Assembly: GCA_947062475.1 (NCBI GenBank)
Contig: CAMSQA010000003.1
Span: forward strand, 31,990 to 95,989
Direction: 5' to 3'
From: an uncultured Clostridia bacterium
Lineage (GTDB): Bacteria > Bacillota > Clostridia > Christensenellales > UBA1242
DNA length: 64,000 nt
Shown: piece after piece, positions 4,138 to 64,000 of the stretch
How the letters are laid out: every line of letters begins with the position of its first letter
Position numbering within the stretch: the stretch's first letter is position 1
Position numbers and translations under genes: made by a program
The notes under the pieces: generated by a model
Told to the model about the DNA's origin: nothing
What the model saw: only the letters and a program-made list of their open reading frames with translations
The model's database searches: none

Positions 4138-4222
4138 AAAAGAGACTGATTTTTCAGCCTCTTTTTGTTTTAAAATGCAAAAATATCACAAATATAATGA
4201 GAGTATAATAAACTCGAATTTA

Positions 4223-5842: not shown

Positions 5843-6749
5843 GTTTTACCTCCTTTTGTTGTTTGTTGAGAAAATTTAAAAAGTGCCTTTCCAGATTATA
5901 TTTGATTTCAGAAATAAATTTGATGTTTTTGTTTGATATATATTTAAATAAATTTGAGATATCATCTCTTTCGATTTTGATTGTGACCTGATTATATTGT
6001 GGCTGTTTGCGTATGATTTCAAATTCGCTTTTGCAAAAGTCAAGATAGTCTTGCTCTGAATTAAATTCAATTTTGTATTCTCGCACCGATCTGTTTCTTA
6101 ATTTATCCATGTCTGTGATTTCAATAATATGACCTTTATCGATAAGAGCAACATAGTCACAAACTTTTTCAAGCTCTTCATAGAGGTGAGAGCTTATAAA
6201 AATGGTCTTTCCTTTTTGTTTTTCTTTTTCGATTAATTCTAGAAAAGCCACTCGCATAAGTGGGTCAAGTCCTGTTGTTGGCTCATCTAAAATCAAAATC
6301 TCAGCATCATAAGATAGGGCAGTGACTATTGCAGTTTTTTGTTTCATACCTTTGCTCATTCGTTTAAGATTGGCTGTGGGGTCAAGATGAAGTGTTTTTA
6401 AGAGTTCATTTAGATTATCAAACTCTTTATTCCCACGAAGCTCTGCCTGAGATTTTAAAAATGCTGTTCCACTTTTTAAATCTGGAAATCCAATTTCGCC
6501 AGGCACATAACCAACAAAAGCTTTGATTTTGTCAGATTGCGTCCAAGAGTCAAAGCCTTTGACATGCACCTTGCCTTTATCAGGTTTAATAAATCCAAGA
6601 ATTGCTCGAATAGTTGTTGTCTTTCCTGCTCCATTTGCACCAACAAAGCCAAGTGTAACCCCTTTTTTTATAGAAAAGTTTAAATCAAAAACGCCGCGAC
6701 CATTGCCATAATCTTTGGTGAGATTTTCAACGGTTATGACCTCTTCCAT
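5835..6749 (-). CDS. ABC transporter ATP-binding protein
   Basis: Walker A GANGAGKTT, signature MSKGMKQK, Walker B ILILDEPTTGLD. Confidence 0.9.
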   Translation of the reverse strand: MEEVITVENLTKDYGNGRGVFDLNFSIKKGVTLGFVGANGAGKTTTIRAILGFIKPDKGKVHVKGFDSWTQSDKIKAFVGYVPGEIGFPDLKSGTAFLKSQAELRGNKEFDNLNELLKTLHLDPTANLKRMSKGMKQKTAIVTALSYDAEILILDEPTTGLDPLMRVAFLELIEKEKQKGKTIFISSHLYEELEKVCDYVALIDKGHIIEITDMDKLRNRSVREYKIEFNSEQDYLDFCKSEFEIIRKQPQYNQVTIKIERDDISNLFKYISNKNIKFISEIKYNLERHFLNFLNKQQKEVKHV

Positions 6750-6761
6750 AACTTTTTCCTC

Positions 6762-7655
6762 CTATCTATAAAATTTCATAAAGTATTCTTCAAGACTCTC
6801 TTTATTATGACGAAAATCAGATATCTTTCTTTTTGAGAGTGCATTTACAAGCAGGTTTATGTTCTTGTCATTGATAGAGACAACAATTTCTGACTTTGTT
6901 TCTGACAAAATCTGCAACTTTTCAAGCTTGCTGATTGACAAACTGAACTTCTCTCTTTCTTGTTCGCTAACAAAAATTATAGAATAGACCTTTTCATTGT
7001 TGTGCGTTAGGCTTGAAGTGGCAAATTGACTGACAATTTTGCCCTCTTTGATGATTGCAATACGATCGCATGTTGCTTCGACTTCACTGAAAATATGACT
7101 TGAAAGAAGAATTGTTTTGCCCCTCTTTTTTTCTTGTTTGACAAATTCAATAAACTTTTGCTGCATTTCAAAATCAAGTCCGCTGGTCGGCTCATCTAAA
7201 ATCAATATATCTCCATCATTTAAAAATGCTGCCACGATTGCAAGTTTTCTTTTATCACCAAGACTCATTTTTTTTGTTTCGCCTTCAGGATTTAATTCAA
7301 AATATTCAAGAAGAAAGTTTAGACGCTTATCATCTTTTACGCCCTTAAGTTTTTTCATCATATCAATAAATTGCCAACCTGACAATCCGCTCGGCAATGC
7401 AATTTCACCAGGAAGGTATCCAACATTTGCCATAAACTTGTCAAAATGAGAAAAACTTTCAAGACCAAGAATTTTAGTTTCTCCACTGTCAGGATGGCTG
7501 AAGCCTAAAAGATGGCGGATTGTGGTTGATTTTCCTGCTCCATTTGGCCCTAAAAATCCAAAGACTTCGCCTTCGTCAATCTTAAAAGAAACATCAAAAA
7601 CGCCGCGACCATGTCCATAATCTTTTGTGAGGTTGTTTACTTCAATTTTTGCCAT
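6762..7655 (-). CDS. ABC transporter ATP-binding protein (second ATPase of the operon)
   Basis: Walker A GPNGAGKST, signature MSLGDKRK, Walker B ILILDEPTSGLD. GGAGG RBS. Confidence 0.9.
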   Translation of the reverse strand: MAKIEVNNLTKDYGHGRGVFDVSFKIDEGEVFGFLGPNGAGKSTTIRHLLGFSHPDSGETKILGLESFSHFDKFMANVGYLPGEIALPSGLSGWQFIDMMKKLKGVKDDKRLNFLLEYFELNPEGETKKMSLGDKRKLAIVAAFLNDGDILILDEPTSGLDFEMQQKFIEFVKQEKKRGKTILLSSHIFSEVEATCDRIAIIKEGKIVSQFATSSLTHNNEKVYSIIFVSEQEREKFSLSISKLEKLQILSETKSEIVVSINDKNINLLVNALSKRKISDFRHNKESLEEYFMKFYR

Positions 7656-7884
7656 GAATCTCCTCCTAAGTAATAATAATTTTTAGACATATGTATATTT
7701 TTTTGACATCAGTATAATTATATGGTAAAATATTATAAAACTCAACTTTTATAATGGACGACAAAAGATTATTTGTAAAATAGTTGACAAAAAGTAAAAT
7801 TATGTCGAAAAAAAAGTTATTTAATTTGAATTTTTTAGGTTATAAAAAATAATTGAAGTGAGATAAAACAAGGGAGAAAATTTT

Positions 7885-8457
7885 ATGGAAAAAGAGGGAG
7901 ATTTGAGAATAAGAAGGACGAAGAAACTTTTGCTTGACTCGCTTATGCAACTTTTGCAAGAACATGCTTTTGAAAAAATTGGTGTCAACGATATATGTGA
8001 AAGAGCAATGGTGCATAGGGCAACATTTTATAATCATTTTGACGACAAATATGATTTGTTTAATTATGCTCTTTCCCAACTTGAAGATGAAATGTATTTA
8101 AGCACAATTGAAAAAGGAAGTTATACCTCCTCTGTGGAAATGTATTGCAGTATTTTGAGAAGTGTTTTTGATTTTATTGAGCAAAACAAATTAAAATTCA
8201 AACTTATAATAGATAATAATTCATCAAAATTGATATTTTTAATTTCGACAACAGTAAAAAGAAGTATAACTTATTTGATCAAACAAAATGAACTTAATCA
8301 AGAGTTTGTTGTGCCTCTTAATATCATAATTGACTTTTTTATGGGAGGAGTCACCTTTCTCTGCCTTGACTGGATTCAGTCAGATCTCTATTCTAAAGAA
8401 GAAATCATAAAATTTTTAGAGGTGTTTATTCAAAATGAAGAATTCTTAAAAAAATAG
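7885..8457 (+). CDS. TetR/AcrR family transcriptional regulator
   Basis: N-terminal HTH, RRTKKLLLDSLMQLLQEHAFEKIGVNDICERAMVHRATFYNHFDDKYDL. Divergent from the ABC operon. Confidence 0.85.
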   Translation: MEKEGDLRIRRTKKLLLDSLMQLLQEHAFEKIGVNDICERAMVHRATFYNHFDDKYDLFNYALSQLEDEMYLSTIEKGSYTSSVEMYCSILRSVFDFIEQNKLKFKLIIDNNSSKLIFLISTTVKRSITYLIKQNELNQEFVVPLNIIIDFFMGGVTFLCLDWIQSDLYSKEEIIKFLEVFIQNEEFLKK

Positions 8458-9588: not shown

Positions 9589-10095
9589 ATGGCACAAAAA
9601 TTTAAATTCATCGGTGAAGAATATTCCAAAGAGGAACTTGCAAAAGTTCTCAAAGAGTCTTTGCTGTCAATGAAAAAAGATATTGATAAAAGACATAGTG
9701 TATATCTTGAAGCGAAAGAACTTTTAAAGGGTGGAGCAATTGTTGAAAACTCTTATGAGATAAATATGCTTTTGAATTTGAATAAAGAGCTGGCAGATTT
9801 TATAGCCAGCACTCACAAAAGAACTATTGAAAGATTGAAAGATGATATAAAAAATCATGATATCGCACATTTTGCAAAGATGGTAGAGAGAGATGTTGAA
9901 AAGCATCAAGAAACTCTTAGTATGCTTGATTTAAATATAGCAGATATATTAAATGAAGAAATCAATCAACAAATCCTTATGGCAACAATAAATAATGATA
10001 TGAATATTATGGAATTTGTTTTAGACAAACTTCAACTTCAAAATGAATTTGTTGATGAGCTTTCTTCTTCAAGAGAAGACGGAATGTCATTATAA
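9589..10095 (+). CDS. Hypothetical helical protein, paralog B
   Basis: GAGGTG RBS + ATG 9589 (MAQKFKFIGEEYSKEEL...). Same N-terminal pattern and similar length to 8990-9493. Confidence 0.65.
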   Translation: MAQKFKFIGEEYSKEELAKVLKESLLSMKKDIDKRHSVYLEAKELLKGGAIVENSYEINMLLNLNKELADFIASTHKRTIERLKDDIKNHDIAHFAKMVERDVEKHQETLSMLDLNIADILNEEINQQILMATINNDMNIMEFVLDKLQLQNEFVDELSSSREDGMSL

Positions 10096-12582: not shown

Positions 12583-12601
12583 GTCTTATATATTGTATAA
12601 T
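12573..12601 (+). promoter_or_regulatory. Sigma-A promoter driving the large ncRNA
   Basis: TTGCAT (12573-12578), 17-nt spacer ending in TG, TATAAT (12596-12601). The predicted TSS at about 12608-12610 coincides with the 5' strand of the closing helix. Confidence 0.7.
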
Positions 12602-12609
12602 CTATTTAT

Positions 12610-13206
12610 AGAAGGTGCAGTATTCTAGTCAGAAAGTTGACTTAGGAAGGTGAAGTAATAGCACCGAAGGGCATATCTGTGAAGTTTCTGGTGCTGGCTT
12701 TGGTTGCCCAAACTGGGGCTGGTGCTGGAAGTTAAGAAATTTGGGCGAGCTGTAATGGCATACAGAAGCCGACCCATTTTTCGTGGAGACCTAGTTTAGG
12801 TGGATGTCAAATCATCTACTTTCTAGGAAGAACCTGCATTGCGATAAAAGTTGTGTGCAGTGTAGCCTGCTTTGAGTGAGTGGTAAGGGATATGGCGTAA
12901 ATGATATAGTTTGTAAAGCGCTTATCAAAGGATATCATTGTCATTGAAATTTCACTTGCAAAACAAGCTAATAAGTCTTCTGCCTGTCAAGGAAAACTTC
13001 TAGACTGTTGCTTATGCAGATACATTGAGGATTATAGTGCGACCTAAGTGGCGATTCGGTGTTATGTCTTGCTTAAAAGGAAACTGCTTAATCGGTGACG
13101 ATGAGTGCGAGAATGGGAAATCCGACCGAACCTATGGCGCAAGGTTTACTCAGTAGATTGCCTTCTAAAAAGGGGAAAGGATAATAAGTCGCTTCCTCTT
13201 TTTTTA
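12610..13206 (+). ncRNA. Large (~560-nt core, ~600 nt with terminator) highly structured ncRNA; OLE/ROOL size class, family unresolved
   Basis: It has its own promoter and terminator (stem 13171-13199 + T7), no credible ORF, and visibly higher G+C than the flanks. Closing helix 12610-12617:13159-13166. Nested hairpin CCTAG/CTAGG (12790-94:12823-27) with GTGGATG/CATCTAC (12800-06:12813-19). Perfect 8-bp AATGATAT/ATATCATT (12900-07:12932-39). CTGTA/TACAG (12750-54:12761-65). GNRA hairpin ATCG-GTGA-CGAT (13091-13102). Long-range TTCGGT/ACCGAA (13055-60:13125-30). Confidence 0.75.
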
Positions 13207-52848: not shown

Positions 52849-52923
52849 GCGTCCATAGTGAAATGGATATCACATAAGTCTTCGGAACTTAGATTTCGGG
52901 TTCGAGCCCTGATGGACGCACCA
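52849..52923 (+). tRNA. tRNA-Arg (anticodon TCG), CCA encoded
   Basis: Manual cloverleaf: acceptor GCGTCCA/TGGACGC, D arm GTGA/TCAC, anticodon stem TAAGT/ACTTA with loop CTTCGGA, T arm TCGGG-TTCGAGC-CCTGA (one G-U), ACCA. Confidence 0.9.
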
Positions 52924-53186
52924 AACATATTGTATAAAAAGTCTTTTTTAAGAAAGGCAAAACCATACTGCATGCAGTGGTGTTTGATTGATTTTGACAC
53001 TGGATACAGTGGTGGAAGAAAAGATAAGACAAAAATTTTGAAAGGAATAAGAAAGTGGCGTCTTTTCTGAATTGTGGGGATTTGATTTTTTGATAAAATA
53101 ATCAAAATTTTATAGAAATCAAAAATCAACCTTTGATTTGACGACAGTGATTGTTTGATTTCTTGAAAATCAAAAAAAATAAAAAC
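52898..53186 (+). repeat. Cassette-boundary module copy 1 (right half only, fused to the genuine tRNA-Arg 3' end)
   Basis: Shares with copies 2 and 3 the core ATAT(T/G)GTATAAAAAGTCTTTTTT (52926-52949), hairpins (52975-79:52998-53002; 53017-24:53061-68), TTTGATTTGACGAC (53132-45) and ATCAAA iterons. Confidence 0.85.
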
Positions 53187-53199
53187 GGGAGTGGAGAAT

Positions 53200-53841
53200 A
53201 TGAGTAAAATTATTTTAACATCAGATGGAATTGATAGTAAAGAATTATATGAATATTTTAATATCATAGTGGACAAGAATCTTAGAATAGGAATAATCAC
53301 TACGGCAAAAGATGAAAAAGAGAAAGCAAATGGACCTCAAAGACATAAAAAATTATTTCTAAATATGTCGGCTCAAACCGTTGATTTTATAGATTTGGAA
53401 GTTGAAAATCCAAAGATTATGCTAAATTATGATTTATTATTTATAGAAGGTGGCAATCCAGTTAGACTAATGTATTGGATTAGAGAAAGCAAAAGTGAAC
53501 CAATTTTTAGACAGTTTTTAGATAATGGCGGAGTTTTAGTAGGTAGAAGCGCAGGTTCTATGGTGTTAGGAAAAAATTTCTCAATTTGCAACTATTTAAC
53601 TCCAGAAATGAATAATGTTGGCATTACAGATTTTTCTGGGCTTGGTTTATGTGATTTAAATATATGCCCACATTATAATGCGTTTCCAAACATGTATGAA
53701 AACTGTGAGCAAAAATTAAGAAAATGCGAAAATGAACAAAACATAAAAATTACCAAGTTATTTGATGGACAAGCGTTTGTAGTATTGGATAAAATTGTTG
53801 AAAAGATAGCGGGAAATGTTGATCCTGAATTAACAAAGTAA
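53200..53841 (+). CDS. Peptidase S51 (dipeptidase E-like) family protein; cassette 1 cargo
   Basis: GGGAG RBS + ATG 53200. IILTSDGI, FIEGGNPVRL, nucleophile elbow GRSAGSMV. Confidence 0.7.
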   Translation: MSKIILTSDGIDSKELYEYFNIIVDKNLRIGIITTAKDEKEKANGPQRHKKLFLNMSAQTVDFIDLEVENPKIMLNYDLLFIEGGNPVRLMYWIRESKSEPIFRQFLDNGGVLVGRSAGSMVLGKNFSICNYLTPEMNNVGITDFSGLGLCDLNICPHYNAFPNMYENCEQKLRKCENEQNIKITKLFDGQAFVVLDKIVEKIAGNVDPELTK

Positions 53842-53845
53842 TTTT

Positions 53846-54276
53846 TTGATTTTCGCAAAATCAAAAGCGCGATCGCAAAATCAAAGTTTGATTTTTATTT
53901 TGATTATTTTGATTATTTTTGATTTTTTAGACCAAAAATTGCCGTCGCGAAATCAAAACTGAAAGATCAAAAATTCGACTTTGTTGTTAGTTGACACAAA
54001 TATATGGTATAAAAAGTCTTTTTTTGAAAAAACTTTGGCACACTGTTTGCAGTGGTTTGATAACGGTTTTGCCACTGGATACGGGGTTGAGAGGAAAAAC
54101 AGGCATAAAATTTTGAAAAAGTTGAAAAGTTAATGTCTTTTCTGGCAATGTAGAATTTTGAATTTTTAATATAATAATCAAAATTTTAAAGAAATCAAAA
54201 ATCAAAGTTTGATTTCGCGACAGAAACTTTGATTTCGAAGAAAAATCAAAATAAATCAAAAAATCAAATTACAAAA
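53846..54276 (+). repeat. Cassette-boundary module copy 2 (complete, ~430 bp)
   Basis: Left arm with palindromes TGATTTTCGCAAAATCA and AAAATCAAAGTTTGATTTT. GTCGCGAAATCAAA (53944-57). Degenerate tRNA 3'-end copy + core (53974-54025). Hairpins (54050-55:54072-77; 54092-101:54134-43). TTTGATTTCGCGAC (54208-21). About 17 ATCAAA/TTTGAT iterons. Confidence 0.85.
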
Positions 54277-54287
54277 GGAGTGCAACT

Positions 54288-54959
54288 ATGAGAAAATGGT
54301 TTAAAGGTTTGAGCGATAAAAAGAAAAAGATAATATCAATTTCATTGACAATCATTGGAATTATTTTTTGTTGTGTGGGAATTGAAAATTATTATTTAAT
54401 TATACCAGGACTTGTTTTTATTGTTCCTGGAATTATTTTTGTTGATTGGTACAATAAAGATAAAAAAGAACAAGAAGATAAAAATATACATAGCGAAATG
54501 GAGAACAATAAGCAAAAAACAGAAGTTCAACAATTTGATGATGAAATAGAAAAAGTTGAAACAACACTCCGCAATGAGAAACCTAATTCAGTACTGAACG
54601 AAGAAAACTTTTTGTATACCCCTCCCGAAGGTTTTGAATTAGTAGATTGGACATATGCAACTACATTAGTTAGAGGATGTAGTAACTATATTGATGAAGA
54701 TTATGAAATTGACATAGATAGCGAGGTAGAAATAATACATGAACCAACAGATAAGTATCCAGAAAATACGTCTATCTATATTGACAATGATAAGGTTGGC
54801 TCTTTGAAACAAGATATGGCAATAGAATGGTATCAGAGGTTTGGAAGTAACTATAATTTTATAGGGCGAGTTGTAGAATATGAGCAAGGAGAATATCCAA
54901 GACTACTGATAGAAATAAAAAAGCCAATTATTAGAAAAATAAAGAAAAAACAAAATTAA
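54288..54959 (+). CDS. Membrane-anchored protein with a HIRAN-like C-terminal domain; cassette 2 cargo
   Basis: AAAGGAG RBS. Two N-terminal TM. C-terminal EVEIIHEPTDKYPENTSIYIDNDKVGSLKQDMAIEWYQRF resembles the HIRAN pattern (EP.N.yD.nAI.V....iGyl). Confidence 0.45.
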   Translation: MRKWFKGLSDKKKKIISISLTIIGIIFCCVGIENYYLIIPGLVFIVPGIIFVDWYNKDKKEQEDKNIHSEMENNKQKTEVQQFDDEIEKVETTLRNEKPNSVLNEENFLYTPPEGFELVDWTYATTLVRGCSNYIDEDYEIDIDSEVEIIHEPTDKYPENTSIYIDNDKVGSLKQDMAIEWYQRFGSNYNFIGRVVEYEQGEYPRLLIEIKKPIIRKIKKKQN

Positions 54960-54982
54960 TATTTACTAAAAGGAGAATTACA

Positions 54983-55180
54983 ATGAAAAATTTGAACGAT
55001 ATTTACAGATCACTTATGCATTTAGTTAAAATTCCTATGAAGCATTCAGAAGAGTTGAAAGAAATAGGATTAGACATTGATGAAGTAATTGAGAAAATTA
55101 GTAAATTGCAACCAGATCTTCAATTTGAAAGTGCTATTTTATTTGCCAAATCAATGCAAAAATATGGACTAATTAAATAA
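54983..55180 (+). CDS. Small hypothetical protein (65 aa)
   Basis: AAGGAG RBS. Helical. Confidence 0.45.
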   Translation: MKNLNDIYRSLMHLVKIPMKHSEELKEIGLDIDEVIEKISKLQPDLQFESAILFAKSMQKYGLIK

Positions 55181-55241
55181 AATTGAGATTCTATTTAGAC
55201 GAAAATGAAATTATCTGTTAATTTGAAGAAGGAGAAAAACT

Positions 55242-56027
55242 ATGGAAGATTTTGAGAACTGTCCTTTATGTGGACATAAAACTGCAAGTATTCTGGGAAC
55301 ACAAGAAGGATTTAATTGGAGCGATGTTAGATGTAAGAATTGCTTTGATTATGTTATTCATCAAAGTGTTTTATTTCAAATTAGTGATGGTGATAAAAAA
55401 GAAATTAATAAACGAAAAAGACTTAATTGTGTTTACAAATTTCTAATGGAAAAGCCATTATTTAATAATAGCTATCTATATCAATTTTTTTATGAAGAAC
55501 AAACTAAAAATATGGAAACATCAGATCCAAGACGTGTAAATGTTGCATCTTTGATGGAAAATCTTCCTTCTAAAACAATTGATAGAATCAATTTTACATT
55601 AAAGAATTTAATTGTTAAATATGATATAGGAAATACGGTTGATGTTAGTGAGATAGATTTTGGATTAGTTCTTATTGACAACGAAAGAGAACTACAGGAA
55701 TTCTTGACTTATTATCAAGGCAAAGATTTGATAAGAATTTTGGAAATGAAGGATGACAAAATTAAAAAATTTTCATTAAATATAAAATCAAAAATTTACT
55801 TGGAGGATGGAGAAAAGTTGAACGAGGAAAAACAAACATTGATTACAAATATAACGAATAATGATAATAGCATAAGTATTGGCGATGTAAAGAATCTTAA
55901 AAAATCTAATATAGGGCAAAATAAAGTTGTTACCGAGAAAGAAACAAAAGTTAATACAGCGTTAGAACTTAATGTTGGCAAAGAGAATAAAAAGGTAGCT
56001 CGAAGAAGTTTTTTTAAGAAAAAGTAA
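55242..56027 (+). CDS. Hypothetical protein with an N-terminal zinc-ribbon
   Basis: AAGGAG RBS. CPLCGH...CKNC four-Cys motif at the N-terminus. Confidence 0.5.
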   Translation: MEDFENCPLCGHKTASILGTQEGFNWSDVRCKNCFDYVIHQSVLFQISDGDKKEINKRKRLNCVYKFLMEKPLFNNSYLYQFFYEEQTKNMETSDPRRVNVASLMENLPSKTIDRINFTLKNLIVKYDIGNTVDVSEIDFGLVLIDNERELQEFLTYYQGKDLIRILEMKDDKIKKFSLNIKSKIYLEDGEKLNEEKQTLITNITNNDNSISIGDVKNLKKSNIGQNKVVTEKETKVNTALELNVGKENKKVARRSFFKKK

Positions 56028-56033
56028 TTGTGA

Positions 56034-56482
56034 ATTTTGATTTTCGCAAAATCAAAACTTCGTCGCGAAATCAAAGTTTGATTTTATTTTTGATTTTTTT
56101 GATTATTTTTGATTTTATGTTAAAATAAACTCGTCGCAAAATCAAAACTGAAAAATCAAAAAACCGACTTCGTTGTTAGTTGACACAAATATATTGTATA
56201 AAAAGTCTTTTTTGAGAAAGGCTTTTTTCATTGCCAAAACCACAATATGCAGGGGTTTAGCATCAAAATTTACACTGCATACAGACCGACATTGAAAAGG
56301 AAGAAAAATTTTTAAATTTTAAGTCTTATTTCCTCTCATCACTGGGCTCGACAAGTTTTGATTTTTACATAAAATTTTGATTTTTTTACCGAAAATCAAA
56401 AATCAAATTTTTGATTTCGCGACAGCCAGCTTTTGATTTCCTTAAAAAATCAAAAATAATCAAAATAAATCAAAAAATCAAA
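56034..56482 (+). repeat. Cassette-boundary module copy 3 (complete, ~450 bp)
   Basis: About 85% identical by eye to the copy 2 left arm. GTCGCGAAATCAAA (56062-75) and GTCGCAAAATCAAA (56133-46). Degenerate tRNA 3' end + core (56164-56214). Hairpin (56298-307:56325-34). TTTGATTTCGCGAC (56410-23). Iterons. Confidence 0.85.
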
Positions 56483-56527
56483 GTCTAATATTTTTTCAAT
56501 TATTTAGGATGCTTTAACTTAAATTTA

Positions 56528-56536
56528 TGCTATAAT
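56528..56536 (+). promoter_or_regulatory. Extended -10 promoter element for the 56568 operon
   Basis: TGcTATAAT (56528-56536), about 30 nt upstream of the AGGAGAG RBS. Confidence 0.5.
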
Positions 56537-56567
56537 GAATTAATAATTATTCAGGAGAGTGCACTAT

Positions 56568-59500
56568 ATGAAACTAATCACAAGCGTACAAATTCAGGAG
56601 TTTTTTAAGGGAACTAGTAGGCGGGGACAGGAGATTTTACCTGAGTTAGTAAGAAAACTTATCCGACTAAGTATAAATAGGAATGGTTCAGTCCATTTCC
56701 CATGTGGCGATGCAATTTACACAAAGGGATGGGACGGAACTGTTCAAGATAATACTATAACAAATGAATATGTGCCAATTTCTAATTCTTTTTGGGAGAT
56801 GGGAACTAATGCTCGTACATTAAACAAAATTAAGGCTGATTATGATAAAAGAAAAATACTTGCTACAAATTATAATAAGAGAGAATATACCTATGTAGCT
56901 GTAACTCCTAAAATATTGGATAGTTGTAAGAAGTTGGAACTTGAAGAGAAGTGTAATAAAGAAAAAATTTTTAAAATTGTTAAGATTATCGACGCAAATG
57001 ATTTAGAATGTTGGATAGAGTACCATATAGATATTGCGTTGTGGTTATTATCTGAATTTAATAAAAAATTTGAAGATATAGGTTTATCATTATTAGTTGA
57101 TGAATGGAACAAAATTTTAGAGTTTGCAGAACCACAGTTAACTTATGATGTAATTGTGAGTGGGAATGAAGCGAAGGCACATAAGTTTTGTCAAGACATT
57201 TCTTGTTTGCAAGGAGATAATATCTATTCAATTTCTTCGCCTTATGGCAAGGAGCCAGCATTTCTCTTTGCTATGGCAAGTTTAATCCAAAATGTGGATA
57301 TATCCATACAAGAAAAGGTTGTTATTGCAAAAAAACAAAATGATTTAGATATTATAAATGTGTGCTGTACTGGAAAAATAATTTTAATTATGTTTAATTG
57401 TTCTGATGATAAAATTAAAATTGGGAACAATAATATTTATGTAGTATTCAATTCGTTGTATAGTGACGATTTAAAATTAGATTATATTAGTTTTGTAGAT
57501 TTTGCAAACGCATTAAAATCTATGAAAATACCGTCTGGCATCACATATAATGTAGCGAAAATGGTAGAATGTAATATAAGTGTATTAAAAAGGTTATATG
57601 CACGAAATCCTTTAGCGAGAATCCCAAAATGGGTTAGGACTAAAGACAGATTGGAACTTATTCCATTAATGTTAATGTCAGAAATAGATCTTGAAGATGC
57701 AAGCAGCATTGAAATACTAAAAACAATAGTCGGATCTAATTATGACGAATATATTGAGAAATTAGACTTTTGGGCGGAGATGGATGATGCTCCCGTATTG
57801 CGTTTTGAGAATTGCTATACGATAAATTCTAGAAAAGAATGTTTTGACTTAATGCAAATTAATATTTATTCAATTAAGGTGGGAAAATTAGAAAAAATTA
57901 TCAAAGCTATATTGTTAAATGAAGATAATGATTCGTCTATAGATGGAATGGTAAACGAGTTTGATCATAATGGAATGATTTGGCATGGCAAAGTTATCAA
58001 CAATATCTTAGATACTTTTATCATTCTTTCGATGAAAAATGCAAAATTCCAAAGACATTATGATTATTTTGTACAAGAAATTTTTAATAGATGCAGTAGT
58101 GATATTAACATGTTAGAGAGATCTTCAAAGTATTTCAGTAAATTAGCAGAATTATCACCGTATGCTATTATCAATTATGTTAAGGGTATGTTATACGATA
58201 ACAATACTTTATTTAGAACATTGCTTGAGGATAAGAGTAAGGGATTTTATAATCATATTAAATGGGCATTGGAGATTTGCCTAAAATTTGAAGACCATGC
58301 TATAGATGCTCTTAGAACGGTGTTAGATTTATATTTTTCTGACATGAAACTTCCCAATTTTGAAAGTTTAAAAGAATTTGTTATACAATGTTTTTCGCCA
58401 ATTTCCACAGGGATAATTCCGATTGCACAAAAATTGAAATTAAATCTCCTGTTTAATAGCATAAATGACTATTATATAGATAAAGCTAAACTTATTGTTA
58501 AAAAGCTAGTAGATGGAGGGGAGAATATTATATCTTATGGTGTATACTATTCGTATAAGTTGCCATATAGAACGCAATCAGATTTATTAATGCAAGACTT
58601 CTATGATACTCAAAAATTGGCTACAAGTTGGTTGATTTCAAATTCAGAGATCCATGAAAAAGCTGAACTTCTAAAAAATATTTTGTCAACAATTCATACA
58701 AATAGTTTAGAGTCTATCACTGAAAAGCTTGCAGAGTTTAAGGAGTTTTTACCTAAGGATATAGATGATAAGATAAAAAGTGAAATAAATTTAGTTGCAT
58801 TGAAAAATATCCATGATATTAAACAGTTTCGTTCTAATTGGACTCATGAGCAAGCATTTTTGCCTTTGTTAGAAGACTTGTATAGCTTTACATTACCAAA
58901 AGATGTTTATATGAAGTATCAATATATATTTAAATTAGAAGGATTCCCGATACTAGACCCTCCAGATTTTGATAGCGATAGAGATAATTGGTATGAAATG
59001 GATAGTGTAAAAAGATGGGATGAGACTCAAAATGCTATTCAAACACTTATTTCGGAATATGGGGATGGTATCATTACTAGAATAATTGAAGATGCTAGTG
59101 GTAAACGAACATATAGATTTTGGTCAATATTATATGATTTTTCAGCCAATCATGATAGGGATTTTAAGAAATTTTTAGAGCTTAAGAATACTGAAGGGGC
59201 CACTGTATATTTACAAAGATATGATGAAAAAAAAGTAATAGATCAAGTTAAAAATTGTGACCAAAGACATAAAGAGTTTTTATATTCTGTATTACCAATT
59301 AATGAATCGCTTATCAAATATTTTAATGGGAAAGAAGATGAAATATTATATTGGAAGAATAAAAGATTTCTATTGCAAGATGTCCCTTGCCGCGAACAAG
59401 TTTTTGAGAAATCGCTTATTTTTAATCCGATTGTTTTGTTAGATTCATATGCCTATAGGAATAAGGATTTTTCTTACGAAGATGGAATAAAGATTTTAAA

Positions 59501-60284
59501 GGCGGTGGTAGAAAAGAGCAAAATCGAAAAGCTTTTCACAGGATCAAATGCCCATGAAGAATATGCTTTACAGGAAATAATTACAAATATGGATAAAAGA
59601 TTCTATACGGATGAATTAGCATTGCTTGAGTTTCAACTTTTGCCATTTTTGCTTAATGGATATATTCAAGATTACCCGATGGGAGTAAAAAATTATTTTT
59701 GGAAAAATCCACAGGAGTTAGGTAAGTTGTTGTGTAAATTGTATAAGGAAAGAGGAAACTTTGATATAAATAGTGTTGGGGCAAAAATTTACTATCAAGG
59801 AATTGTAAACTTAAATAAAAGCTGTTTAATTCCAAGGGAGTATATAGTACAAAAGAAAGATGATTTACAAGAGTGGGTGCAAAGAGTAATTGAGGTTGTG
59901 GATGAAAGTGAAGTTGAAATCAAAAAATATATTGTTCAATCGATAGTTTCCATTATGGCATTATGTCCAGAGGATTCTGTGAATAAAATATGGCCAACAA
60001 GAGAAGTTGCAAAAATACTAGAAGATATAGACAAATTAAAACTATTTGAGAGGGATGCTGTTTCGTCATCATTTTATTTTGCGAAAATTAATTCTCAAGG
60101 TATGAGATGCGTTGGCAATGGAGATTATGAACACAATGAATCTCTAAAATATAAACAGTTTGCAAATGAATATCGTGCAATATATCCTGTTGTATCAAAG
60201 GCTCTTGACTTTTTATCGGATTCCTTTGCCAGAACGGGAGATGAGGATAAAAGGAACGCTGTGCGAGGTAGTTATTATGTTTAA
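56568..60284 (+). CDS. Large (1238 aa) hypothetical protein: conserved-looking N-terminal domain + long alpha-helical repeat region; no P-loop seen
   Basis: AGGAGAG RBS, 8 nt, ATG 56568. The N-terminus, ..GQEILPELVRKLIRLS...FPCGDAIYTKGWDGTV...SFWEMGTN...KADYDKRK, could be a nuclease-like (D...E) domain. I found no GxxxxGK[ST] motif. Confidence 0.6.
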   Translation: MKLITSVQIQEFFKGTSRRGQEILPELVRKLIRLSINRNGSVHFPCGDAIYTKGWDGTVQDNTITNEYVPISNSFWEMGTNARTLNKIKADYDKRKILATNYNKREYTYVAVTPKILDSCKKLELEEKCNKEKIFKIVKIIDANDLECWIEYHIDIALWLLSEFNKKFEDIGLSLLVDEWNKILEFAEPQLTYDVIVSGNEAKAHKFCQDISCLQGDNIYSISSPYGKEPAFLFAMASLIQNVDISIQEKVVIAKKQNDLDIINVCCTGKIILIMFNCSDDKIKIGNNNIYVVFNSLYSDDLKLDYISFVDFANALKSMKIPSGITYNVAKMVECNISVLKRLYARNPLARIPKWVRTKDRLELIPLMLMSEIDLEDASSIEILKTIVGSNYDEYIEKLDFWAEMDDAPVLRFENCYTINSRKECFDLMQINIYSIKVGKLEKIIKAILLNEDNDSSIDGMVNEFDHNGMIWHGKVINNILDTFIILSMKNAKFQRHYDYFVQEIFNRCSSDINMLERSSKYFSKLAELSPYAIINYVKGMLYDNNTLFRTLLEDKSKGFYNHIKWALEICLKFEDHAIDALRTVLDLYFSDMKLPNFESLKEFVIQCFSPISTGIIPIAQKLKLNLLFNSINDYYIDKAKLIVKKLVDGGENIISYGVYYSYKLPYRTQSDLLMQDFYDTQKLATSWLISNSEIHEKAELLKNILSTIHTNSLESITEKLAEFKEFLPKDIDDKIKSEINLVALKNIHDIKQFRSNWTHEQAFLPLLEDLYSFTLPKDVYMKYQYIFKLEGFPILDPPDFDSDRDNWYEMDSVKRWDETQNAIQTLISEYGDGIITRIIEDASGKRTYRFWSILYDFSANHDRDFKKFLELKNTEGATVYLQRYDEKKVIDQVKNCDQRHKEFLYSVLPINESLIKYFNGKEDEILYWKNKRFLLQDVPCREQVFEKSLIFNPIVLLDSYAYRNKDFSYEDGIKILKAVVEKSKIEKLFTGSNAHEEYALQEIITNMDKRFYTDELALLEFQLLPFLLNGYIQDYPMGVKNYFWKNPQELGKLLCKLYKERGNFDINSVGAKIYYQGIVNLNKSCLIPREYIVQKKDDLQEWVQRVIEVVDESEVEIKKYIVQSIVSIMALCPEDSVNKIWPTREVAKILEDIDKLKLFERDAVSSSFYFAKINSQGMRCVGNGDYEHNESLKYKQFANEYRAIYPVVSKALDFLSDSFARTGDEDKRNAVRGSYYV

Positions 60285-60786
60285 TAGTGAAGAGGGTAAA
60301 AGAGAAATGGCATACATTATTACTCGGTATGCTTACAGAGATACAGCACTTGAATATTATCATTCAAAATCAATAATGATGGATATGTTGTTTTATAAAA
60401 AGATTTATAATATAGTCTTTGCTAAATTAAAAAAAGTAGGCTTATTACACAAATATATTGAAAACTATCAAGTAGATGAACTTAAAAATAAAGAAGATTA
60501 TGAAAATTTACTGGCTACAGTGCCAGAAGAACTCAAATTTAAGTTTATGAGATATTTTATTGAAGTTACTGAGCTTTTGCGAGAGTATTTTGAATTTAGT
60601 TGGGACCCTGCGGAAATTGTTGATTGTAATTTGTACGGAAAAAGTCCTGCTTATTATGTTTTATCAGGGCATTTCACTGAGTGTTGTAAAGATGGCGCAA
60701 TTTTAGATGATAAAACAATGTGCTACATTAATAAAGATATACATAACAGAATTTACACCTTGTTGATAAATGGATATTTCAGTTAA
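60277..60786 (+). CDS. Hypothetical 169-aa protein, translationally coupled to the 1238-aa gene
   Basis: ATG 60277 overlaps the upstream stop by 8 nt (ATGTTTAA). MFNSEEGKREMAYIITRYAYRDTALEYYHS... The track start at 60160 lies inside the upstream gene. Confidence 0.6.
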   Translation: MFNSEEGKREMAYIITRYAYRDTALEYYHSKSIMMDMLFYKKIYNIVFAKLKKVGLLHKYIENYQVDELKNKEDYENLLATVPEELKFKFMRYFIEVTELLREYFEFSWDPAEIVDCNLYGKSPAYYVLSGHFTECCKDGAILDDKTMCYINKDIHNRIYTLLINGYFS

Positions 60787-60787
60787 A

Positions 60788-61024
60788 CTATTTGAATAGT
60801 TCTTTGCAGACCTTATATGTAATTTCAATAATATGGTCAATTTCAAGAGAATGAAGTTGACCTTTTTCATTGTCTAAGTTTATATATTCACGCCATTTTT
60901 CTTTTGAAAAACCTTTTGTGAATTTATCTTCTAGCTCACAAATTTTGTTTAATTGAAGTTGTGTTTCGGCACTTAGTTTTTCCGATTCAATTATGTTCAT
61001 AACAATTTCTATAATATGTTTCAT
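60788..61024 (-). CDS. Small hypothetical protein (78 aa), divergent from the Fic gene
   Basis: GGAGG RBS on the minus strand. Helical. Its stop is 1 nt from the convergent 60277-60786 gene. Confidence 0.5.
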   Translation of the reverse strand: MKHIIEIVMNIIESEKLSAETQLQLNKICELEDKFTKGFSKEKWREYINLDNEKGQLHSLEIDHIIEITYKVCKELFK

Positions 61025-61137
61025 AAAACCTCCGTAAATTTTGTTGTGTGTTGTATAGCGTAAATAAAATTCTTTTGCAAGTCTTTTTGTGAAGTTTTTG
61101 AAAATATCTTATCGGCAATAATTATTGTGAAAGTTGG

Positions 61138-61166
61138 TTGACTTTTTGCCGATATCGGTATATAAT
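61138..61166 (+). promoter_or_regulatory. Fic gene promoter
   Basis: TTGACT (61138-43), 17 nt, TATAAT (61161-66). This excludes the track's TTG start at 61138. Confidence 0.65.
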
Positions 61167-61194
61167 AAAGTTAATAAATTTAGGAGAAAAATCA

Positions 61195-62085
61195 GTGAAA
61201 TTTTTATCAGTTGCAGAGATTGCTAAAAAATGGGGAATGAGTGATAGGTCTGTTAGGAACTATTGTGCGCAAGGACGCATTAAAGGAGTCTTCCTAACTG
61301 GAAAAACTTGGAACATTCCAGCAGATGCAGTTAAACCAGAAAGAGAGAATAAAGCAAAATTTAGTGATAATGAACTTTTGAATGTATTGAAAGAACAAAA
61401 AGATATGAAGCTTCAAGGTGGAATCTACCACAAAACTCAAATTGAATTGACTTACAATTCGAACCATATCGAAGGCAGTAAACTTACAGAAGACCAAACA
61501 AGATTTATCTTTGAAACCAATACAATTGGTGTAGTAAATGAAACGATCAATATTGATGATGTTATTGAAACTTCAAACCACTTTAAATGTATTGACTATA
61601 TTATAGATAATGCAAAGAAATCTTTGACCGGATTAATGATAAAAGAATTGCACTTCATCTTAAAAACTGGCACTTCGGATAGTCGCAAAGATTGGTTTAA
61701 TGTTGGAGCATACAAAAAACTCCCCAACGAAGTTGGTGGTGAAGAAACCTGTAAACCAGAAGATGTTGCAACTGAAATGAAAAAACTGCTTGAAACTTAC
61801 AACGCAAAGAAAATGAAAACCCTAGAAGATATAATAGAGTTTCACCAGCACTTTGAAAAAATCCATCCTTTCCAAGATGGTAACGGCAGAGTCGGACGCC
61901 TTATTGTATTCAAAGAGTGCTTGGCAAACAACATCGTTCCATTTATAATAGATGACAACTTAAAATTTTACTACTATCGCGGATTAAAAGAATGGAACAA
62001 TGAACGAGGTTATCTATGCGATACCTGCCTGTCAGCACAGGATAAATATAAGCAGTGGTTGGAGTATTTTGAGATTAAGTTTTAA
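61195..62085 (+). CDS. Fic/DOC family protein (class II, internal inhibitory helix) with an N-terminal HTH
   Basis: AGGAG RBS + GTG 61195. HTH LSVAEIAKKWGMSDRSVRNYCAQGRI. Inhibitory motif SNHIEG (S/TxxxE[G/N]). Fic motif HPFQDGNGRVGR. Confidence 0.88.
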   Translation: MKFLSVAEIAKKWGMSDRSVRNYCAQGRIKGVFLTGKTWNIPADAVKPERENKAKFSDNELLNVLKEQKDMKLQGGIYHKTQIELTYNSNHIEGSKLTEDQTRFIFETNTIGVVNETINIDDVIETSNHFKCIDYIIDNAKKSLTGLMIKELHFILKTGTSDSRKDWFNVGAYKKLPNEVGGEETCKPEDVATEMKKLLETYNAKKMKTLEDIIEFHQHFEKIHPFQDGNGRVGRLIVFKECLANNIVPFIIDDNLKFYYYRGLKEWNNERGYLCDTCLSAQDKYKQWLEYFEIKF

Positions 62086-62125
62086 AAGAAATTACAGCCT
62101 AACTAAGTAAAAGAGCAGAGGTAAT

Positions 62126-64000
62126 ATGCAAAATATATTAAAAAAATACTGTCTAGAAGACAACGAAAATGGAATTATATTAATTGATATGCCCACTGGA
62201 AGTGGTAAGACGCACAATGTTATAGAGTTTATATATAAAAACTATGAAAACTTTGCCAAAAAAGTATTTTTTATTACTCCATTGAAAAAGAATCTAGGAT
62301 ATGATGACTTGAGAAAGAGATTTATTGAAAATGGGAAAGAAGAAATCTTTAATAAGAATGTATTATATATAAAAAGTAATATGGATATGTTGATAGAAAA
62401 CTTTAACGAAGCATATCAAGAAATACCTGATAAAATTAAAAGTGATAAAACAACAAAACATGTTAAAACACTTATAAAAATAATAGATTCCAATGTAAAT
62501 TCAGATTTTAAGACTGAAGCAATAGAAAATTTAAGAGAAGAATGGGAACCTAAATTTAGATCTGTTTTAGAAAATTATGTTATTTTTAACGATAACGGAG
62601 AAAAAAGAAACTACGCAGAACGTTTAAGATTTGTTGAGGAAAACAATCCATGGATTATAAAACTATACCCTTCAGTAATCACAGATAAAGCTAAAATCAT
62701 ATTTATGACCGTGGATAAGTTTTTGTCAATGAACTCAACTATAATTAAACCTTCTTATACTATTCTTAGTGATGATATAGTAAAGGATTCAATTATTTTC
62801 ATAGATGAGTTTGATTCAGCGAAAGAAAATATCCTAAGCAATATAATAAAAAGTTCGCTTAATAACAAAATTGGATTGTTAGATCTTTTTCATTTAATAT
62901 ATGCCGGTTTGACCGTTTGTGATTTTACCAAAAAATTAATGACTCCATCTCAGTATAATATTGAAAAGAAGAAAAATTCTACTAATTATTATAATCCTAT
63001 TGAGATTATTGATAAATTTAAGAAAAGGGCTGATGAAATTAAGGATAAGTATAACTTGCAATTTTTACATAAGTTAATTGGTAATCCCAAAGATAATGCG
63101 TATTTTATGTTTCAGGACTACAGATTTATTAGTATACTGCCATCACAAAATAATTATCTATTGTTAAAAACTAACAAAACTGACAAAATCAATCAAATAG
63201 AACCTATGCCGAATAGAGAAGAAAATAAAGATGAGCTGAAAGATCTTTTATTTGACATTAAGAACTTTATAAATTATTTTCAAATAGGGGTTGGATTTAT
63301 AGCCAATAATTATAAACAGCTCAAGATTGACTTAAAAGAAGATATGAATTTAATTTCGGACGATGCATGTGTAAGAACGGTACTTGCGGAATTTGGTATA
63401 GAAGGGAAATATTTAAGTTATTTAACGAAAGCCATCGTTAGAAGAAAGAAAAGCAAAGAAATGAGTAGTAATTCATTATCTGATGATTTAGATTTCTCTT
63501 TTAATGAAAAAGGTTTTAGATTTTATAGTATTATCGATAGTGACACTCACGACACACAATCAAAAATTCAATATGTAACAGTTGACGACACTCCGGAAAA
63601 AATATTATTGGGCTTATGTAATAAAGCAAAAGTGGTCGGTATTTCAGCTTCTTCATCACTAAGGACATCAACGGGTAATTTTGACATAAAATATTTAGAA
63701 ATTAAATTAGGTAGAAAATTTAAACATTTGAGCAAAGAAGAAAGAAAACAGCTAGAAGAATATTTTGATAGGCAAACCTGTGATTATGGCAAAGTAAATA
63801 TATTCACAAAAGAAATAAACGTTAATGAACTTAATTTGGAAGATAACATAACTAAATTTAGTGAAAATATTCAAGTTATAATAAATAAAAAATTTCAGAC
63901 ATTAAGAGGTTATATAAGAATAAGGTATATTAAATTATTTTTATGTATGCTGGAATTCTTAAAAGATAATAATTTGTATTCCTATTTGTTCTTAACTAGT
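62126..64000 (+). CDS. SF2 helicase/translocase-like protein; the 3' end runs off the window
   Basis: Open-ended, so absent from the track. ATG 62126 is followed by 625 sense codons to the window end. Motif I DMPTGSGKTH, motif Ia FFITPLKKNL, motif II IIFIDEFDS. Confidence 0.7.
   Translation, partial: MQNILKKYCLEDNENGIILIDMPTGSGKTHNVIEFIYKNYENFAKKVFFITPLKKNLGYDDLRKRFIENGKEEIFNKNVLYIKSNMDMLIENFNEAYQEIPDKIKSDKTTKHVKTLIKIIDSNVNSDFKTEAIENLREEWEPKFRSVLENYVIFNDNGEKRNYAERLRFVEENNPWIIKLYPSVITDKAKIIFMTVDKFLSMNSTIIKPSYTILSDDIVKDSIIFIDEFDSAKENILSNIIKSSLNNKIGLLDLFHLIYAGLTVCDFTKKLMTPSQYNIEKKKNSTNYYNPIEIIDKFKKRADEIKDKYNLQFLHKLIGNPKDNAYFMFQDYRFISILPSQNNYLLLKTNKTDKINQIEPMPNREENKDELKDLLFDIKNFINYFQIGVGFIANNYKQLKIDLKEDMNLISDDACVRTVLAEFGIEGKYLSYLTKAIVRRKKSKEMSSNSLSDDLDFSFNEKGFRFYSIIDSDTHDTQSKIQYVTVDDTPEKILLGLCNKAKVVGISASSSLRTSTGNFDIKYLEIKLGRKFKHLSKEERKQLEEYFDRQTCDYGKVNIFTKEINVNELNLEDNITKFSENIQVIINKKFQTLRGYIRIRYIKLFLCMLEFLKDNNLYSYLFLTS

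Follow-up and report, generated by a model that had tools for sequence, protein, structure and literature searches.

Repeat-rich modules beside a clostridial tRNA gene: probable junctions of a tRNA-targeting cassette system

Downstream of the tRNA-Arg(TCG) gene of an uncultured Clostridia bacterium (GenBank assembly GCA_947062475.1, contig CAMSQA010000003.1) lie three related, repeat-dense modules, here called M1, M2 and M3, which are very probably the junctions of a site-specific cassette system that targets tRNA genes. M1 is an attL-type junction, and M2 and M3 are attP-type junctions of a tandem cassette array. We examined them within a 64,000-nucleotide stretch of the contig (hereafter the window; positions are counted from its first base). 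Each full module consists of a left arm, a short symmetric core, a spacer and a right arm, and both arms are filled with the hexamer ATCAAA or its complement TTTGAT. An initial annotation had singled out positions 53846-54276, inside M2, for these repeats and had likened them to the arms of a phage attP or to plasmid iterons. Taken whole, the reading we lean towards is one of tRNA-targeting cassettes that carry no recombinase of their own, with the hexamers as accessory recombination sites; on the narrower question of whether the arms are such accessory sites, we are evenly divided.

Results

The mapped crossover coincides with the centre of a symmetric core

The crossover was mapped from three single-cassette arrays that give both junctions, at the related loci L018, L022 and L041 (loci are cited by such numbers throughout). 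At L022, attL reads ...CCGCAC-CA-AATATATTG... and attR reads ...GTCGACA-CA-AATGAAAAC...; the corresponding pairs are ...CAGCTC-CA-AATATACTA... and ...GTTGACA-CA-ATAGAAATT... at L018, and ...CAGCAC-CA-ACTATATTG... and ...ATTGACA-CA-TACATTATG... at L041. The B' flanks of the three loci are mutually unrelated, the left arm of the cassette ends in GTTGACA-CA, and what attL and attR share is CA alone, which in two of the loci extends to CAA(A)T. By these junction sequences, the exchange falls on the CA with which the tRNA's CCA ends. At L041 the native B' flank can be seen directly, since the tRNA end has a displaced copy of 20 nt there with TACATTATGTG after it. The same locus carries, downstream of its copy of cassette 1, a remnant of ~230 bp (1209-1470) that ends in the displaced 20-nt copy of the tRNA-Leu(TAA) 3' end. 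This remnant is a scar that an island of the classical tRNA-integrating kind left at this tRNA, and a chloramphenicol acetyltransferase (CAT) gene comes after it.

The motif GACTT-N15-CA-N15-AAGTC has this CA exactly at its dyad centre, and it occurs with that spacing in five distinct cassette-cassette junctions, where chance would give 0.12. Because the mapped junction coincides with the dyad centre, we regard this as strong evidence that an enzyme bound symmetrically carries out conservative site-specific recombination here. The core that the repeats had been said to bracket is thus a genuine recombination core, with its crossover at the central CA. The segment just after the CA varies among all cassettes. 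Between cassette 2 in M2 (53999-54010) and its copies at L017/L018 (9712-9723), which are otherwise 99% identical, six of seven positions differ at 7-13 nt after the CA (TGGTATA vs CTAAACA); this segment may be a second exchange point or a mismatch-tolerant spacer. Two other identities for the junction were considered and rejected. A sigma-70 promoter across it would be wrongly spaced (TTGACA-N11-TATAAA), and a promoter scan reported none; the likeness of the core to dif/Xer sites, about 7 of 11 XerD-half positions by eye, is unconvincing in AT-rich DNA.

The nature of the junction also bears on whether each cassette could be a Tn7-type or Mu-type non-autonomous transposon, with multiple transposase sites at its ends and a tRNA target selector. 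Such an element would account for multiple, inverted sites in both arms, for a fixed insertion orientation and position beside a conserved gene class, and for units that end in ...TTGACA. We nevertheless find it very unlikely, since the flanking repeat is CA alone and not a 5-bp duplication, ~190 bp of non-repeat DNA separate the 5' boundary from the right arm and make the ends highly asymmetric, and the joined ends form a precisely symmetric core, as is typical when recombination is conservative and site-specific. In none of the loci examined was a transposase gene found. Tn7-like ends in particular, for which a 5-bp duplication, TGT...ACA termini and tnsABC are expected, were rejected on the CA repeat, the 190 bp between the 5' boundary and the first arm site, and the absence of a transposase from these loci.

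The same cassettes occur at several tRNA genes

Scanning one genome per species with the right-arm pattern returned five loci, all from metagenome-assembled genomes (MAGs) of uncultured Clostridia or Firmicutes, and at each the match lies 204-211 bp downstream of a same-strand tRNA gene (Thr-GGT, Leu-TAA, Leu-CAG and, twice, Thr-CGT). A scan of JGI metagenomes gave three loci: L006, a shorter variant after a transfer-messenger RNA (tmRNA) gene, and L007 and L008, which are GC-richer and follow tRNA-Arg(CCG). L002 has a lone aldo/keto-reductase gene, with a half module of the M1 type on one side and a left arm on the other, as expected if a whole-module circle had recombined at its centre with the tRNA end.

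Both complete cassettes of the window recur at other tRNA genes. Copies of cassette 2 comprise its three-gene cargo plus everything from AAAAAGTC through the right arm, and were found directly after tRNA-Thr(CGT) at L017 (98.3% identity over 2185 nt) and L018 (99.0% over 2061 nt) and, at 91.6% identity, after tRNA-Gly(CCC) at L021 and after a fourth tRNA, of unassigned type, at L022. Conserved chromosomal genes of L018 are 67% identical to those of the window at the nucleotide level; because the cassette itself is 98-99% identical, we conclude that cassette 2 was transferred recently between distant genomes. Cassette 1 is present, at 95.5% identity, after tRNA-Gly at L040 and after tRNA-Leu(TAA) at L041, and 95.5% is also the identity of M1 to its copies at these two loci. 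Cassettes 1 and 2 are therefore found at three and at least four tRNA loci, respectively, with precise junctions, as expected of cassettes moved in trans like cis-mobilizable elements (CIMEs) or staphylococcal cassette chromosome (SCC) elements, and their sites presumably still function. In this respect the initial annotation, which had correctly seen an attachment-site-like layout, fell short: it did not recognise horizontally mobile cassettes that target many tRNA genes.

Loci syntenic with the window were located through the flanking 147-aa gene, and their tRNA-Arg gene occurs in two states. In the first it is followed by an array of at least 10 small, functionally unrelated genes (L009-L016), with modules that are full, partial or decayed and that differ between strains; in the second it has its native terminator and no module (L034-L037 and L048). 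The tRNA-Val gene of the window is likewise empty, with no cassette. Arms have been lost, with gene, promoter and terminator kept, from a diverged, fixed cassette that carries a peptidase S51 gene (L043/44, 77% amino-acid identity) and from the distal cassettes of L009. The arms thus seem dispensable for expression, because fixed and decayed cassettes retain all three of these parts without them.

Several further features were noted at these tRNA genes. The 5' half of a tRNA-Leu lies just upstream of the intact tRNA at L002 (2792-2833), and a decayed tRNA-Arg lies just upstream of the intact one at L034 (about 9690-9760, minus strand) and also at L035. The array ends of L002 (4280-4338, tRNA-Leu) and L009 (4144-4085, minus strand, tRNA-Arg) share a piece of ~60 nt at 88% identity, which follows GTTGACA-CA and consists of TAACAGGGGTATACGAACACCC and the terminator GAAACCGAGTTTTCGGTTTC; beyond it the two loci, from different MAGs, are unrelated. 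At L003 a 639-aa gene (2873-4792, minus strand) stands directly after the tRNA-Leu(CAG) module in the opposite orientation, and its N terminus resembles, by eye, a tet(M/O/W)-type ribosomal protection protein. Both this tet(M/O/W)-like gene and the CAT gene of L041 are directly beside arrays, which does not imply that they are cargo.

The hexamer repeats are dense, ordered and conserved

Between 53846 and 54276 there are 10 ATCAAA and 7 TTTGAT, giving exactly the 17 hexamers that the initial annotation had put at about 17 per module. It had also named, beforehand, a frequency no higher than in shuffled DNA as grounds for dropping the idea; 1000 dinucleotide-preserving shuffles gave a mean of 1.68 (sd 1.22) and a maximum of 7, far below what is observed. 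M1, M2 and M3 hold 8, 18 and 20 hexamers, so that 1262 bp, or 2% of the window's length, contain 46 of its 219 copies. The repeated unit is about 10 nt long, aAAAATCAAAa (164 instances), and its copies have the same number, order and orientation in M2 and M3. Both perfect palindromes described earlier are present, TGATTTT-CGC-AAAATCA at 53847-63 and AAATCAAA-G-TTTGATTT at 53878-94.

The 14-mer TTTGATTTCGCGAC occurs exactly at 53944-57 (minus strand) and 54208-21 (plus), the inverted pair originally reported, and again at 56062-75 (minus) and 56410-23 (plus). Two other copies that had been listed with these are inexact, one at 56133-46 with one mismatch and one at 53132-45 (TTTGATTTGACGAC) with two. 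Allowing up to two mismatches, the window has 11 matches against 0.44 expected, a number reached in 0 of 100 shuffles. Two further matches, at 20696 and 43701, both with two mismatches, fall outside the modules and look like background.

We built nhmmer profiles of both arms, and their matches in the 64-kb window are confined to M1, M2 and M3. Because the left-arm profile matches right arms in reverse orientation, the two arms are inverted relatives of one another. Across diverged copies, the motif columns are better conserved than the rest of the arm (0.95 vs 0.83 on the left, 0.93 vs 0.69 on the right). This higher conservation, the fixed architecture and the mirroring of the arms about the core are evidence, at the level of sequence, that the hexamers are functional protein-binding sites.

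Many short repeats in an AT-rich region could also suggest plasmid-type iterons, a replication origin bound by a Rep protein, and this was the second likeness drawn in the initial annotation. We find it scarcely credible and set it aside. Iterons are expected as direct repeats of ~17-22 bp accompanied by a rep gene and an AT-rich unwinding element; the motif here is ~10 nt long and occurs in both orientations, no rep gene is nearby, and the arrays are chromosomal and stand beside tRNA genes. A blastn search with the module found no match among 72,556 plasmids or 50,697 phages. In viral collections, the right-arm pattern and the 14-mer palindrome pattern had 0 matches each, and the left-arm palindrome had eight, all of them single chance matches without motif clusters.

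A different use of the same repeats would be as a folded single-strand substrate resembling attC, in which the left and right arms pair into a long imperfect hairpin for the recombinase and the hexamer sequence is secondary. As single-stranded DNA, M2 and M3 do pair left arm with right (z = -5.4; 0 of 100 shuffles fold as well), and several local palindromes are present. We think this quite unlikely all the same, given that pairing is trivial between arms that are inverted repeats of one motif, that the motif sequence is itself conserved (0.93-0.95 column identity) and does not vary with pairing kept, and that the crossover would sit in the unpaired centre, ~150 and 270 nt from the outer ends, unlike the hairpin-base position in attC.

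Module anatomy and layout of the array

In a full module the left arm, of ~155 bp, contains the palindrome TTTTGATTTTCGCAAAATCAAAA, two GTCGCRAAATCAAA boxes, of which the first is fused to AAATCAAAGTTTGATTT, and TTTTGATT repeated three times in phase. The AAGTC of the core opens a terminator-like hairpin, seen most clearly in a copy at L009 (AAAAAGTCTTT...AAAGACTTTTT). The spacer, measured from AAAAGTC to the second GTCTTTTCT box, is 131-133 nt long in eight diverged copies. The right arm, of ~150 bp, contains AAATCAAAGTTTGATTTCGCGACAG, the palindrome TTTGATTT-N7-AAATCAAA and three direct AAATCAAA repeats, and is followed on its 3' side by a conserved extended -10 promoter block or directly by the ribosome-binding site (RBS) and start codon of the next gene. 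Left arms have nine hexamers and right arms 8-10, and the core motif GACTT/AAGTC differs from the arm motif.

The array in the window is anchored at tRNA-Arg(TCG) (52849-52923, plus strand), which was identified by ARAGORN and Rfam and by junction comparisons and whose terminal CA (52922-52923) is the crossover dinucleotide. M1 (52922-53199, plus; module proper 52924-53199) lacks a left arm and consists of CA-N15-AAGTC (52922-52943), the terminator-like core hairpin, a ~120-nt spacer with GTCTTTTCTG at its end, a right arm (53061-53188) and an RBS. The right member of the 14-mer pair had been noted, alone, next to the tRNA gene at the outset, and M1 is indeed the attL-type half that an attP model predicts there. 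The cargo of cassette 1 is a Pfam-assigned Peptidase_S51 (peptidase E-like) gene (53200-53841, plus), which recurs at other tRNA loci.

M2 (53842-54287, plus), within which the initially annotated interval falls, begins with the left arm (P arm) of cassette 1 (53842-53998, plus; 146 bits with the left-arm hidden Markov model, or HMM). This arm has nine hexamers in the order - + + - - - - + +, a GTCGCRAAATCAAA box at 53872-85 (two mismatches) and another at 53944-57, where it coincides with the 14-mer, and it ends in ...GTTGTTAGTTGACA-CA. The symmetric core, GACTT-N15-CA-N15-AAGTC, spans 53977-54018 without strand, with its crossover CA at 53997-53998. The terminator-like core hairpin (AAAAAGTCTTTTTTT...) and the fixed-length spacer occupy 54011-54144 (plus); the spacer has one conserved hairpin, GCAGTGG...CCACTGG, and ends in box 2, GTCTTTTCTG (54135-54144). 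The right arm, belonging to cassette 2 (54137-54284, plus; 104 bits with the right-arm HMM), has eight hexamers, with the palindrome AAATCAAAGTTTGATTT fused to the 14-mer at 54208-21, then TTTGATTT-N7-AAATCAAA, three direct AAATCAAA repeats and the RBS GGAGTGCAACTATG.

Cassette 2 carries three open reading frames (ORFs) of 223, 65 and 261 aa with no family match (54288-56027, plus). It is followed by M3 (56028-56567, plus), which is composed of the left arm of cassette 2 (56035-56187), a core (56166-56207, CA at 56186-87), a spacer, a right arm (56340-56486) and an extended -10-like TGCTATAAT at 56528-36, ahead of the next cargo. The third unit (56568-64000, plus) extends past the end of the window and has no left arm within it. 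Its cargo includes a 1238-aa protein whose sole match is phrog_18693 (unknown function), a Fic protein matching the PADLOC candidate defence family PDC-S04 (61195-62085) and, from 62126 and running off the window, a ResIII helicase resembling DdmD and Cas3; it looks like a set of defence genes. Among the genes inside arrays are those for peptidase E, acetyltransferases, aldo-keto reductases, a CBAH like bile-salt hydrolase, and defence.

In many cassettes the right arm is succeeded by a conserved promoter block of ~35 nt with the extended -10 CCGATACAGATTGCAAAGAGTTGTGGTATAATG, as at L003 (2650-2700), L009 (minus strand, about 8880, 7930, 6690, 6170 and 430) and L013. It persists in cassettes without arms and is absent from M1 and M2 of the window; M3 has the differing TGCTATAAT. 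Elsewhere in the window, at 12596-13180 (plus), is a full-length OLE (ornate large extremophilic) RNA, at 388 bits against Rfam RF01071, which we take to point to an anaerobic Firmicute.

The enzyme would act in trans

We searched the window ORFs and unannotated array ORFs with Pfam, NCBIfam, PADLOC and PHROGs, and inspected the gene tables of the loci. There was no Phage_integrase match in the cassettes, the window or the arrays, and no serine recombinase (Resolvase plus Recombinase domains) in the window or the related loci searched. The array is headed by the tRNA-Arg gene, and the genes upstream of it (147 and 186 aa) have no recombinase domain. Because no recombinase was found in the window or in ~45 related loci, the enzyme most plausibly acts in trans. 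The initial annotation had inferred a dedicated DNA-binding protein encoded outside the small cassettes, and this fits: the cassettes have neither a recombinase nor an obvious DNA-binding gene, so a trans-acting factor is implied. As to the class of the recombinase, the bare-dinucleotide crossover suggests a serine enzyme and the arms suggest a lambda-type tyrosine integrase. A structured guide or bridge RNA in the spacer was also considered and rejected. RNAalifold gave -4.9 kcal/mol, with a single hairpin of eight pairs, one covarying pair and no Rfam match; moreover, the same spacer occurs at different tRNA genes and by inspection has no segment that varies with the target tRNA.

Several observations weigh against tRNA-targeting cassettes with the hexamers as accessory recombination sites. 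Neither a recombinase nor a transposase nor a candidate binding protein was found in the window, where most ORFs of at least 110 aa were scanned, or in the ~45 related loci. With CA as the only sequence that attP and attB share, the best-fitting enzyme would be a serine recombinase, a class not known to need arms. The right arm abuts the promoter or RBS of its cassette and may have a regulatory role. Some breakpoints between cassette variants fall inside the arms, at TTTGATTTCGCGACAG in L021/22 compared with the window. Finally, L013 (minus strand, about 5140-8400) and L012, which come from strains of one species, are distinguished by a block of 3.2 kb (a CBAH bile-salt-hydrolase-like gene, HxlR, cupin and small ORFs) with the left-arm palindrome TTTTTGATTATCGCAAAATCA at its borders as a 24-nt direct repeat. 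Because these breakpoints lie within arm repeats, homologous recombination between repeats also shapes the arrays.

The last two observations could be taken further, to a scheme with no dedicated machinery at all, in which the modules are portable homology blocks shuffled by homologous recombination after DNA uptake and the hexamers are relics of an extinct element. The repeat-bounded L012/L013 indel and the mosaic change from one variant of cassette 2 to another within the right arm (L021/22) are what it would produce. It is highly improbable as a general account, because the same cassette stands at four or more tRNA genes with unrelated flanks and a junction that is always CA, where homology to attB is just 2 nt; because 99% identity between genomes that are 67% identical implies recent transfer; and because the motif columns are more constrained than the rest of the arm.

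The position of the right arm raises a further alternative, that of a regulatory array. The hexamers would then be operators for a repressor or a nucleoid-type silencer, or A-tracts resembling UP elements, that control or insulate cassette transcription, and mobility would need just the ~42-bp core. In its favour, the right arm ends directly at a promoter (the CCGATACAGATTGCAAAGAGTTGTGGTATAATG block in L003, L009 and L013) or an RBS, terminator-like hairpins before and after the core give the unit the look of an insulated expression module, and a core of the serine-recombinase type would need no arms. Set against this, an equally elaborate inverted arm follows the stop codon of each cassette, where there is no promoter to control, fixed or decayed cassettes lose the arms yet keep promoter and terminator, and the functionally unrelated cargo argues against a common physiological regulator. 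We judge a purely regulatory role unlikely. That an arm also follows the stop codon, and that old cassettes lose their arms, are the grounds on which we hold that the hexamers serve mobility and not expression. By eye, TGATTTTCGCAAAATCA agrees at 11 of 15 positions with the consensus of the CodY box.

Discussion

Proposed mechanism

We infer from these patterns that the hexamers are bound by a protein and are bound for the sake of recombination, that the cassettes pass through a circular intermediate, and that the enzyme belongs to one of the classes named above. The mobile unit would comprise, in order, the core hairpin, a fixed spacer of ~120 nt, the right arm, a promoter and/or RBS, the cargo and a left arm ending in GTTGACA-CA. 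Joining of the unit's ends in the presumed circular form would create GACTT-N15-CA-N15-AAGTC, whose central CA would be where the strands are exchanged, and a new unit would enter at the tRNA gene and push older ones downstream. The aAAAATCAAAa and GTCGCGAAATCAAA boxes are most likely arm-type sites for a protein encoded elsewhere in the genome, which might be a second DNA-binding domain of the recombinase, a partner of it or a directionality factor. Once bound, this protein would turn the ~430-bp site into an assembled complex competent for recombination.

Comparison with known systems

The comparison with a lambda-type attP, with its core motif and a different, multi-copy flanking motif, is an apt analogy. 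Heterobivalent tyrosine integrases of the lambda type act on arm-type sites, together with sites for IHF, Xis and Fis. Here, too, a short core lies between arms of 150-270 bp with many copies of a second motif, integration is at tRNA genes, and attL keeps one arm and attR the other. The likeness to a phage attP that the initial annotation had proposed thus holds for the layout, in which the P arm measures ~150 bp and the P' side ~270 bp, and fails in other respects: attP and attB share CA in place of an identical overlap of 6-8 bp, and no integrase or excisionase was found in or next to the cassettes. There are also 17-20 motif copies instead of ~5, the units measure 0.9-2.2 kb, and many different tRNAs are used.

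Large serine recombinases and SCC elements (CcrAB at rlmH; TnpX/TndX) resemble the present system in the central-dinucleotide crossover, the dyad core of ~45-50 bp, the unrelated attB flank, the tandem arrays, the many units without their own recombinase, which would move in trans, and the Firmicutes hosts. They differ in that serine integrase sites have no repeat-laden arms and in their target, one protein gene as opposed to the CCA end of many tRNAs; moreover, no serine recombinase gene was found here. CIMEs are cis-mobilizable deletion derivatives of a known streptococcal integrative and conjugative element (ICE) and sit next to it. They are likewise non-autonomous, bounded by att sites and accreted in tandem with an integrase in trans; here, by contrast, there is no sign of a parent element, and the units have the look of single-gene cassettes built for the purpose.

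With integrons (attC x attI, IntI) the system shares arrays of mostly single-gene, recombinase-less cassettes at one anchor with newer units proximal, cassette-associated imperfect inverted repeats that can fold as single strands, and adaptive or defensive cargo. Unlike integrons, it has no intI, attI or Pc platform, its anchor being a tRNA 3' end; its junction modules are about 430-540 bp long, compared with 57-141 bp for attC with its R''-L''/L'-R' boxes; its crossover is at the central CA and not at the R' box (G/TT); and a terminator, often together with a promoter, comes with each cassette. Tycheposons have their own integrase, are flanked by partial tRNAs and have been likened in size to PICIs (phage-inducible chromosomal islands) of 10-20 kb (bioRxiv 10.1101/2020.12.28.424599). 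Like tycheposons and tRNA islands (Islander, PMC4383910), the cassettes are cargo elements that target tRNA or tmRNA genes, push older ones inward and leave degenerate remnants, but they are ~10 times smaller and have neither an integrase nor a duplicated tRNA fragment.

By the features that define each of them, the system thus does not qualify as an integron, a lambda-type island, a Tn7-like element or a set of iterons, and we found no description of it in the literature searched. In kind, these are site-specific integrative cassettes, with a substantial chance of representing a distinct gene-capture system. In its fullest form that proposal is possible, somewhat short of probable: an undescribed system of uncultured Clostridia from gut and environment, integron-like in function and built of unrelated parts, in which self-contained cassettes with one to three genes apiece, equipped with a terminator and a promoter, would be moved in trans by a single recombinase, a generic tRNA or tmRNA 3' end (T-arm/CCA) would be attB, and attP would span ~430 bp with 17-20 sites on which the complex assembles.

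Significance

If this gene-capture proposal is right, every tRNA gene is a potential cassette array. The 3' ends of tRNA genes would be universal landing pads, and part of the hypervariable tRNA-adjacent regions of gut Firmicutes would be explained. A recombinase with an unusually generic target, one present in every genome, would be an attractive tool for genome engineering. Clostridia would have a cassette-exchange mechanism, a second system to rank with integrons, through which single accessory genes would spread between genomes as far apart as 67% nucleotide identity in their conserved chromosomal genes.

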